Positions 24,404 through 24,820 of a stretch of 64,000 nt of DNA are shown here, piece by piece; the first letter of the stretch is position 1; each line of letters begins with the position of its first letter. The position numbers were made by a program, and so were the translations under genes. The DNA is from an uncultured Ectothiorhodospiraceae bacterium (GTDB lineage Bacteria > Pseudomonadota > Gammaproteobacteria > UBA9214), in NCBI GenBank assembly GCA_964443845.1, contig CAYUFA010000001.1:47025-111024 (forward strand), given 5' to 3'. A model generated the notes under the pieces. That model saw only the letters and a program-made list of their open reading frames with translations, had not been told where the DNA came from and searched no databases.

Positions 24404-24820
24404 TCAGTCATCAGAAGCTGCATCGGCAGGCGTGGCACGGACTTGACCGGAGGACAGGTCCTGCAATAACGCACGCAGCTCCGCTTCCGCCACCGGGAAC
24501 GGCAGTGCCCGGTACACCGGCAGACGGTTACACAGGCGGTCGAGCTGCACCCGGTATTCCTCATCATAAAAGACGATCACCCGGATATCCGGCTGCTGCT
24601 GGACCACCGCAAGCATGGATTCCAGACTGCTGGAACGGTCGCGAAAGTCGGACTGGAAGTTGAACTCGGCGACAATCACGTCCGGACGCCGTTTCCTGAT
24701 CCCGGCAAGCGCCTTGCGCATGCGCGTCTCGACGACCACCTCGAAACCCAGGCTCTCATACACCGGGCGGAAATTCGGGTAACCGCCCAGCTCGATGATG
24801 GATAGTAATCGTTTTGGCAA
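24404..24820 (-). CDS. Small protein with a degenerate CheY-like receiver fold (paralogue A); no acidic pair, and the phospho-Asp position is altered
   Basis: ...KRLLSIIELGGYPNF...PDVIVAEFNFQ...IRVIVFYDEEY.... A TTG start at 24820 with a GAGGAC RBS is proposed; a GTG at 24844 is the alternative. Paralogous to 57369..57770. Confidence 0.4.
   Translation of the reverse strand: MPKRLLSIIELGGYPNFRPVYESLGFEVVVETRMRKALAGIRKRRPDVIVAEFNFQSDFRDRSSSLESMLAVVQQQPDIRVIVFYDEEYRVQLDRLCNRLPVYRALPFPVAEAELRALLQDLSSGQVRATPADAASDD

Follow-up and report, generated by a model that had tools for sequence, protein, structure and literature searches.

A pair of paralogous stand-alone pseudo-receivers from an unannotated protein family in an uncultured Ectothiorhodospiraceae bacterium

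A stretch of 64,000 nucleotides from an uncultured Ectothiorhodospiraceae bacterium (hereafter, the window) carries two paralogous genes, A and B, whose small products are pseudo-receivers of the aspartate-less type according to published definitions: the receiver fold is kept, and D, T, K and one residue of the DD pair are missing (PMC12632262). Both proteins belong to an unannotated family within the well-known pseudo-receiver class, a result that is solid at the level of annotation. Regarding their function, the reading adopted with moderate confidence is that A and B represent an uncharacterised family of stand-alone pseudo-receivers of CheY-like descent, which would act by phosphorylation-independent binding at the former active-site face.

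Gene A is located at 24404..24820 and gene B at 57369..57770, both on the minus strand, and their translations contain the sequence blocks quoted in the original prediction. Gene A encodes a stand-alone protein of 138 amino acids (the A-type) from a TTG start at 24820, with GAGGA 10 nt upstream. Alternative in-frame starts are a GTG at 24844 and a GTG at 24865, and public gene calls for a near-identical protein use all three of them (138, 146 and 153 aa), the NCBI call for the A protein being the 138-aa form. Gene B encodes a stand-alone protein of 133 amino acids (the B-type) from an ATG at 57770, and public collections hold a 133-aa protein identical to it. Homologues were found in 3952 database clusters for A and in 2684 for B (E ≤ 1e-3), nearly all of them 125–160 aa in length. 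These thousands of conserved homologues rule out a spurious-ORF reading of A and B and uphold the assumption that both are translated, the start of A varying among public calls (TTG or GTG).

The paralogy of the two proteins, initially proposed from a block-by-block comparison, is real and far beyond chance. A and B are 33% identical over 126 aa (BLASTP, E 5e-13), and a six-frame search of the window with the family profile returned A and B as the sole two matches, with E values of 1e-58 and 1e-54. The next-best match in the window was a canonical REC-PAS protein at E 0.49, and no third paralogue was detected by this search. A joint alignment of 62 members of the A and B subfamilies reveals fifteen columns that are invariant in both: I8, E10, Y21, G25, R35, A37, P46, V50, A51, E52, F53, L66, L70, Q74 and P109 (A numbering). 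The key residues of A are E10, R35-K36-A37, P46, V50-A51-E52-F53 and P109, and the equivalent residues of B are E11, R36-K37-A38, V51-A52-E53-F54 and P114. A-type and B-type genes co-occur in single genomes, as in this window and in contig_20975. Moreover, two distant A-type copies (L038 and L046), 57% and 59% identical to A, are present on one 2.5-Mb MAG chromosome (CP070733.1), indicating that the copy number of the family varies beyond the A/B pair.

AlphaFold2 models built on the alignment contain five beta-alpha units in both proteins (A, pLDDT 83.7 and pTM 0.80; B, pLDDT 84.3 and pTM 0.79), with an additional beta-hairpin within the beta3-alpha3 loop of B. The (beta-alpha)5 arrangement with a 2-1-3-4-5 parallel sheet, by which a receiver fold is recognised, is present. 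When the model of A was compared with the PDB by Foldseek, the top 50 matches were receiver domains only (TM 0.58–0.72, identity 12–22%), including KdpE, Spo0F, PhoP, LuxO, FrzS and NtrX. The models of both proteins and the Foldseek matches of A therefore agree with the receiver-type fold that had been suspected from the beta-alpha periodicity.

At the sequence level, the kinship to receivers is visible by profile–profile comparison only: hhalign against six canonical receivers gave an E value of 2e-5 and a probability of 77%, and a search of PDB sequences with the family HMM retrieved no receiver. A Pfam scan of A and B showed no match at E up to 10 to PF00072 or to the minor pseudo-receiver families PF06490, PF21155, PF21194, PF21695, PF21714 and PF22368, and no precomputed Pfam domain was found among 240 homologues of A/B. 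Nothing significant was obtained from NCBIfam, where A weakly matches the receiver region of TIGR02915 (E 6e-4); the candidate assignments potato_inhibit and DUF4306 (Pfam/NCBIfam) were discarded as sub-threshold noise. The proteins, which had been described as impossible to place in any named family, indeed have no Pfam or NCBIfam assignment. A HMMER search of 1.84 billion representative proteins (50% identity clusters) found just 317 clusters at E ≤ 1e-3, which indicates a compact family, well apart from canonical receivers; the latter number in the millions. The best 150 of the 317 cluster representatives are all 78–206 aa long, and from this narrow range it follows that no member carries a fused output domain.

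The comparison with CheY locates the changes in the active site. In the hhalign register, E52 of A is aligned with D57 of CheY, Y85 with T87, F108 with K109 and P109 with P110, and in B the acceptor is E53, the T position is V and the K position is L. The phospho-acceptor had been predicted to be replaced, and it is the Glu of the VAEF motif that takes the place of D57. Residue counts were made on 104 near-full-length family representatives at 50% clustering. The acceptor position (52) is E in 90 of them and D in 9; the other conserved positions are 10 (E in 82), 35 (R in 101), 36 (K in 86), 53 (F in 93) and 109 (P in 91). The commonest residues of these representatives are Y, V, A, L, F and I at the T position and Y, L, F, H and R at the K position, Thr and Lys, respectively, not being among them. 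A and B lack the phospho-acceptor Asp at the end of beta3, the Thr/Ser at the end of beta4 and the Lys at the end of beta5, the Pro after the K position being retained. In the alignments, the acceptor Asp corresponds to a family-invariant Glu, and the T/S and Lys that hold the phosphoryl group are replaced by aromatic or aliphatic residues. With D, T/S and K lost, normal His-to-Asp phosphotransfer chemistry would be impossible for A and B; those relatives with Asp at the acceptor position (9 of 104) might still be modified.

The claim that the acidic pair is lacking holds only in part. The DD pair is absent, but one Glu (E10 in A, E11 in B) is invariant in both the A-type and the B-type family. 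E10 comes straight after strand beta1, the site of the acidic pair in receivers, and the residue that follows it is L, S or T, so that no DD pair is formed. Its register against D12/D13 of CheY is ambiguous by one or two residues in the global alignment at beta1. Based on secondary-structure position and on the hhalign register, E10 and R35 are predicted to lie at the active-site face.

Conservation is distributed unevenly along the protein. Expressed as top-residue frequency over 79 species-level genomes with an A-type gene, it reaches 0.98 in the beta3-alpha3 loop, 0.95 in the beta1-alpha1 loop (ELGGYPNF), 0.91 in beta4 and 0.89 in alpha3, falling to 0.62 in alpha4, 0.51 in beta5 and 0.46 in alpha5. 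The A-type beta3-alpha3 loop, AEFN[FY]QSDFRDR[TS]S[SN]LE (NFQSDFRDRSSSLE in gene A), is practically invariant even where overall identity is 52%. The B-type loop, [FY]YGYGNNYAGVN[IV]SNLD (LYGYGNNYAGVNISNLD in gene B, where it forms the modelled hairpin), is longer and different, with the same segment trend as in the A-type; loop types intermediate between the two also exist. Conservation is thus highest at the former active-site face and lowest in alpha4-beta5-alpha5, the output and dimerisation surface of canonical regulators. This pattern points to the former phosphorylation face, together with the S-x-R-K-A start of alpha2, as the functional surface. In pseudo-receivers, the alpha2/beta3-alpha3-loop/alpha3 region is described as gaining importance, and Glu as the most frequent substitute for D (PMC12632262).

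Aspartate-less receivers or pseudo-receivers are found in atypical response regulators such as FrzS, RitR, HP1043 and AmiR (reviewed in PMC4395418 and PMC12632262). The A/B family shares with them the (beta-alpha)5 fold, the loss of active-site residues with Glu at the D position, a presumed phosphorylation-independent action and the predominance of orphan genes. However, it is missed by PF00072 and every other Pfam model, it has neither D, T nor K and keeps one acidic residue of DD, and its members always stand alone, with no output domain. Its signature, E...S-x-R-K-A...P-D-x-V-A-E-F plus a lengthened beta3-alpha3 loop, and the concentration of its conservation on the former active-site face also set it apart.

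The minor pseudo-receiver families of Pfam are small distinct groups with receiver topology, and the active-site residues are missing from their HMMs (PMC12632262). PF06490 (the FleQ N-terminal domain) and the five other families named above resemble A/B in being small and phylogenetically distinct; nevertheless, they are usually part of larger proteins, and A and B match none of them. In size, fold and stand-alone nature, A and B are similar to CheY, Spo0F, DivK and CpdR, which are among the best structural matches. These single-domain canonical regulators, in contrast, have the full DD-D-T-K set and are phosphorylated; relative to them, the A/B changes are D to E, T to Y or V, and K to F or L. 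Finally, plant pseudo-response regulators and the fungal Rim15 pseudo-receivers have the same Asp-to-Glu change at the acceptor site, but they are eukaryotic, multi-domain proteins of unrelated context, and the likeness is limited to the substitution.

The missing catalytic residues, combined with the conservation pattern, suggest that A and B act without phosphorylation, via the former active-site face. The acting surface would be made up of the beta1-alpha1 loop, the R-K-A start of alpha2 and the lengthened beta3-alpha3 loop. The likeliest activity would be the constitutive binding of a partner protein there; the proteins would dock, for example, on the four-helix bundle of a DHp or Hpt domain and serve as a decoy or connector that cannot be phosphorylated. 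A and B would bind different partners, since their beta3-alpha3 loops are each strongly conserved yet quite unlike each other. In the clade of this organism, the neighbouring sgp/ArsR/REC-PAS/hybrid-kinase cluster may receive input from A. Against this explanation speaks the lack of a gene neighbourhood shared across the family.

The conserved charged pocket (E, E, R, K and a Ser-rich loop) would suit the binding of a small molecule or metal no less than the docking of a protein. A sensor role is possible, if on balance unlikely: the Glu pair, the Arg-Lys and the Ser/Asp/Arg-rich loop would bind a small molecule or cation, switching the conformation of the domain, and the molecule might be tied to the physiology of sulfur oxidisers. 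The clustering of invariant polar residues at the former Mg2+/phosphoryl site is in line with such a role, and so is the distribution of the family. One genome per GTDB species was scanned with a pattern, which yielded 355 confirmed loci, the best 80 of which were taken for the analysis of taxonomy and context. The named taxa among these best 80 of 355 are Thiohalobacter thiocyanaticus, Thiohalophilus thiocyanatoxydans, Thiogranum, Sulfuricaulis, Acidiferrobacteraceae, Thiothrix, Candidatus Parabeggiatoa, Thiotrichaceae, Ectothiorhodospiraceae, Chromatiales and Candidatus Muproteobacteria, which are sulfur-oxidising Gammaproteobacteria; Thiohalobacter thiocyanaticus and Thiohalophilus thiocyanatoxydans are cultured carriers of A-type genes. 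A few MAGs labelled Halobacteria, Bacteroidota or Pelovirga are probably binning or labelling errors, and the taxonomic range of the family is restricted. There is also precedent for a sensor, as some pseudo-receivers are ligand-controlled, for example FleQ and VpsT with c-di-GMP (PMC12632262). However, no ligand-binding motif was recognised in A/B, and the strong difference between the A and B loops is more readily explained by partner specificity than by a ligand common to both.

For partner binding, the reading preferred here, genomic context gives no general partner: the A cluster and the B-hemH arrangement hold only in close relatives. Divergent from A, across an AT-rich spacer of 319 bp, is a sulfur globule protein gene (25140..25499, plus strand); the sgp-like neighbour reported at first proves to be a genuine SGP (Pfam, E 4.5e-17). 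A scan of the spacer found neither a sigma-70 promoter nor a terminator. Downstream of A on the same strand, the gene at 23565..24233 (minus) encodes a secreted protein that combines a signal peptide with a weak CarboxypepD_reg-like domain and may be associated with sulfur globules in the periplasm. This gene accompanies the A-type in 36 of 80 loci and abuts or overlaps it in some relatives, such as L006. An ArsR-family HTH gene (25578-25910, minus) is situated between sgp and the genes for a REC-PAS protein (25987-26841, minus) and a hybrid histidine kinase (26838-29258, minus). The order in the window is hybrid kinase, REC-PAS, ArsR, sgp (plus strand), A and CarboxypepD_reg-like. The ArsR-family regulator has only two cysteines, C34 and C99 near the C-terminus, a layout reminiscent of the persulfide-sensing SqrR/BigR repressors; by analogy, it may sense sulfide or persulfide on behalf of the sgp cluster. 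A literature search for an sgp-linked regulator of the pseudo-receiver kind returned nothing relevant.

This arrangement recurs in approximately 30–36 of 80 genomes, all in the closest clade, and the CHASE8 hybrid kinase gene (50224-53025), located further along the strand of B, recurs downstream of the B gene string in relatives. Both facts would suit a local role, a narrowed form of the adaptor idea first put forward, in which A acts as a phosphorelay decoy or connector on the adjacent hybrid kinase/REC-PAS pair, tuning the sgp cluster, and B does so on the CHASE8 kinase. Furthermore, receivers dock on DHp or Hpt domains through the beta1-alpha1 region, which is conserved here. Nevertheless, such a local role is decidedly unlikely. 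The arrangement is absent from the other 44 loci, where a REC-encoding neighbour was found in 3, a frequency taken as the background expected by chance; a general linkage of A-type genes to hybrid kinase/REC-PAS genes is thus not sustained outside the closest clade. Distant B-types have unrelated neighbours, and synteny at such range may merely reflect shared ancestry.

The neighbours kept most widely by A-type genes, in as many as 44 of 80 loci, are convergent genes encoding a four-Cys protein of 153 aa, a protein of 79 aa and DUF3301. In the window, four small conserved genes at 14162-15658 (plus strand) encode DUF3301, a protein of ~127 aa, one of 79 aa and the four-Cys protein of ~153 aa; no Pfam or NCBIfam family was found for the 127-, 79- and 153-aa proteins. 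Related genomes, up to 44 of 80, have this block immediately downstream of the A-type gene and convergent with it; in the window it sits about 9 kb from A, behind an insert of about 8 kb with EAL-HDOD, motA/B-like, glycogen phosphorylase and G6PD genes. As a functional partner of the A-type, the 153-aa/79-aa/DUF3301 block was rejected, being convergent and without known function. A gene of 133–138 aa near the A-type in relatives (c7), considered as a further paralogue, encodes an Xre/MbcA-type antitoxin instead.

The surroundings of B are of a different kind. The ferrochelatase gene hemH (56381..57382, minus, ATG at 57382) begins within the last 14 nt of B, an overlap that the original prediction had described correctly, and the gene for a DUF2238 membrane protein (57793..58416, minus) lies 22 nt upstream of B. 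They belong to the co-directional string DUF2238-B-hemH-NTP_transferase-GCS2. It has been considered that B could be a ferrochelatase accessory (a regulator or iron donor) translationally coupled to hemH, given the 14-nt stop/start overlap and the fact that B-types 63–100% identical to B are directly upstream of hemH in four independent contexts; in a fifth context (P0233), the place of hemH is a gap of ~1 kb in which no gene has been called. This proposal is very improbable. Distant B-types were surveyed by a metagenome scan with an alignment led by a divergent B-type sequence, and hemH was present in 4 of 68 B-type loci with enough flank, all four at least 65% identical to B, the 64 more distant loci being without it. 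The linkage fails below about 65% identity, and hemH was discarded as a general partner of the B-type. In two metagenome loci (L162 and L167), NTP_transferase comes directly after the B-type gene with no hemH between them, which makes hemH a variable element in a conserved backbone and not an obligate partner. In addition, the A-type has the identical invariant residues and no link to hemH. More distant B-types have heterogeneous housekeeping neighbours, the sole recurrent one being a divergent hydrolase-like gene (19 loci). Comparison of L162 and L167 with positions 55693-57770 of the window indicates that hemH has apparently been gained in, or lost from, a DUF2238-B-NTP_transferase-GCS2 string.

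Beside fliE/F/G, the window also encodes a sigma-54 activator (2699-~3716, maximal ORF 2699-4219, minus). Its AAA+ domain begins at residue 180 of the maximal ORF, the Met candidates are residues 129 and 168 only, and at most 51 residues precede the domain, with no REC, FleQ or GAF module; the activator does lack an N-terminal regulatory domain, as had been noticed. The idea that A/B supply this domain in trans rests on that truncation and is scarcely credible, as the activator is in the flagellar cluster, 20 kb from A and 53 kb from B, the promoter search found no sigma-54 promoter upstream of either gene, and no co-localisation with the activator was seen in any related locus. The sole perfect sigma-54 promoter, at 4695-4710 (plus strand; TGGCACGCATCTTGCT), lies ~80 nt upstream of the gene at 4792-6879, in the flagellar region.

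A more far-reaching interpretation, which is highly doubtful, sees the family as a signalling module, lineage-specific and independent of phosphorylation, of sulfur-oxidising Gammaproteobacteria. Its re-purposed active-site pocket, built from Glu-Glu-Arg-Lys and the invariant Ser/Asp/Arg loop, would sense a metabolite or bear a non-canonical modification, and the signal would be passed by A to the expression of the sgp cluster and by B to a second pathway. If true, such a pocket would represent a new input logic for a receiver-fold protein.

Pseudo-receivers are common and their mechanisms mostly obscure (PMC12632262). Pending a phenotype or a partner, the present finding is a modest one, at the level of annotation. 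It would justify a new domain-family entry for several thousand proteins now labelled "hypothetical" in sulfur oxidisers of environmental importance. The family is an unusually clean case, as its members stand alone, are never fused and go undetected by current domain libraries, with a near-invariant loop at the former phosphorylation site and two paralogues per genome that differ mainly in this loop. It offers a tractable system for learning what the receiver fold does once phosphorylation has been lost.
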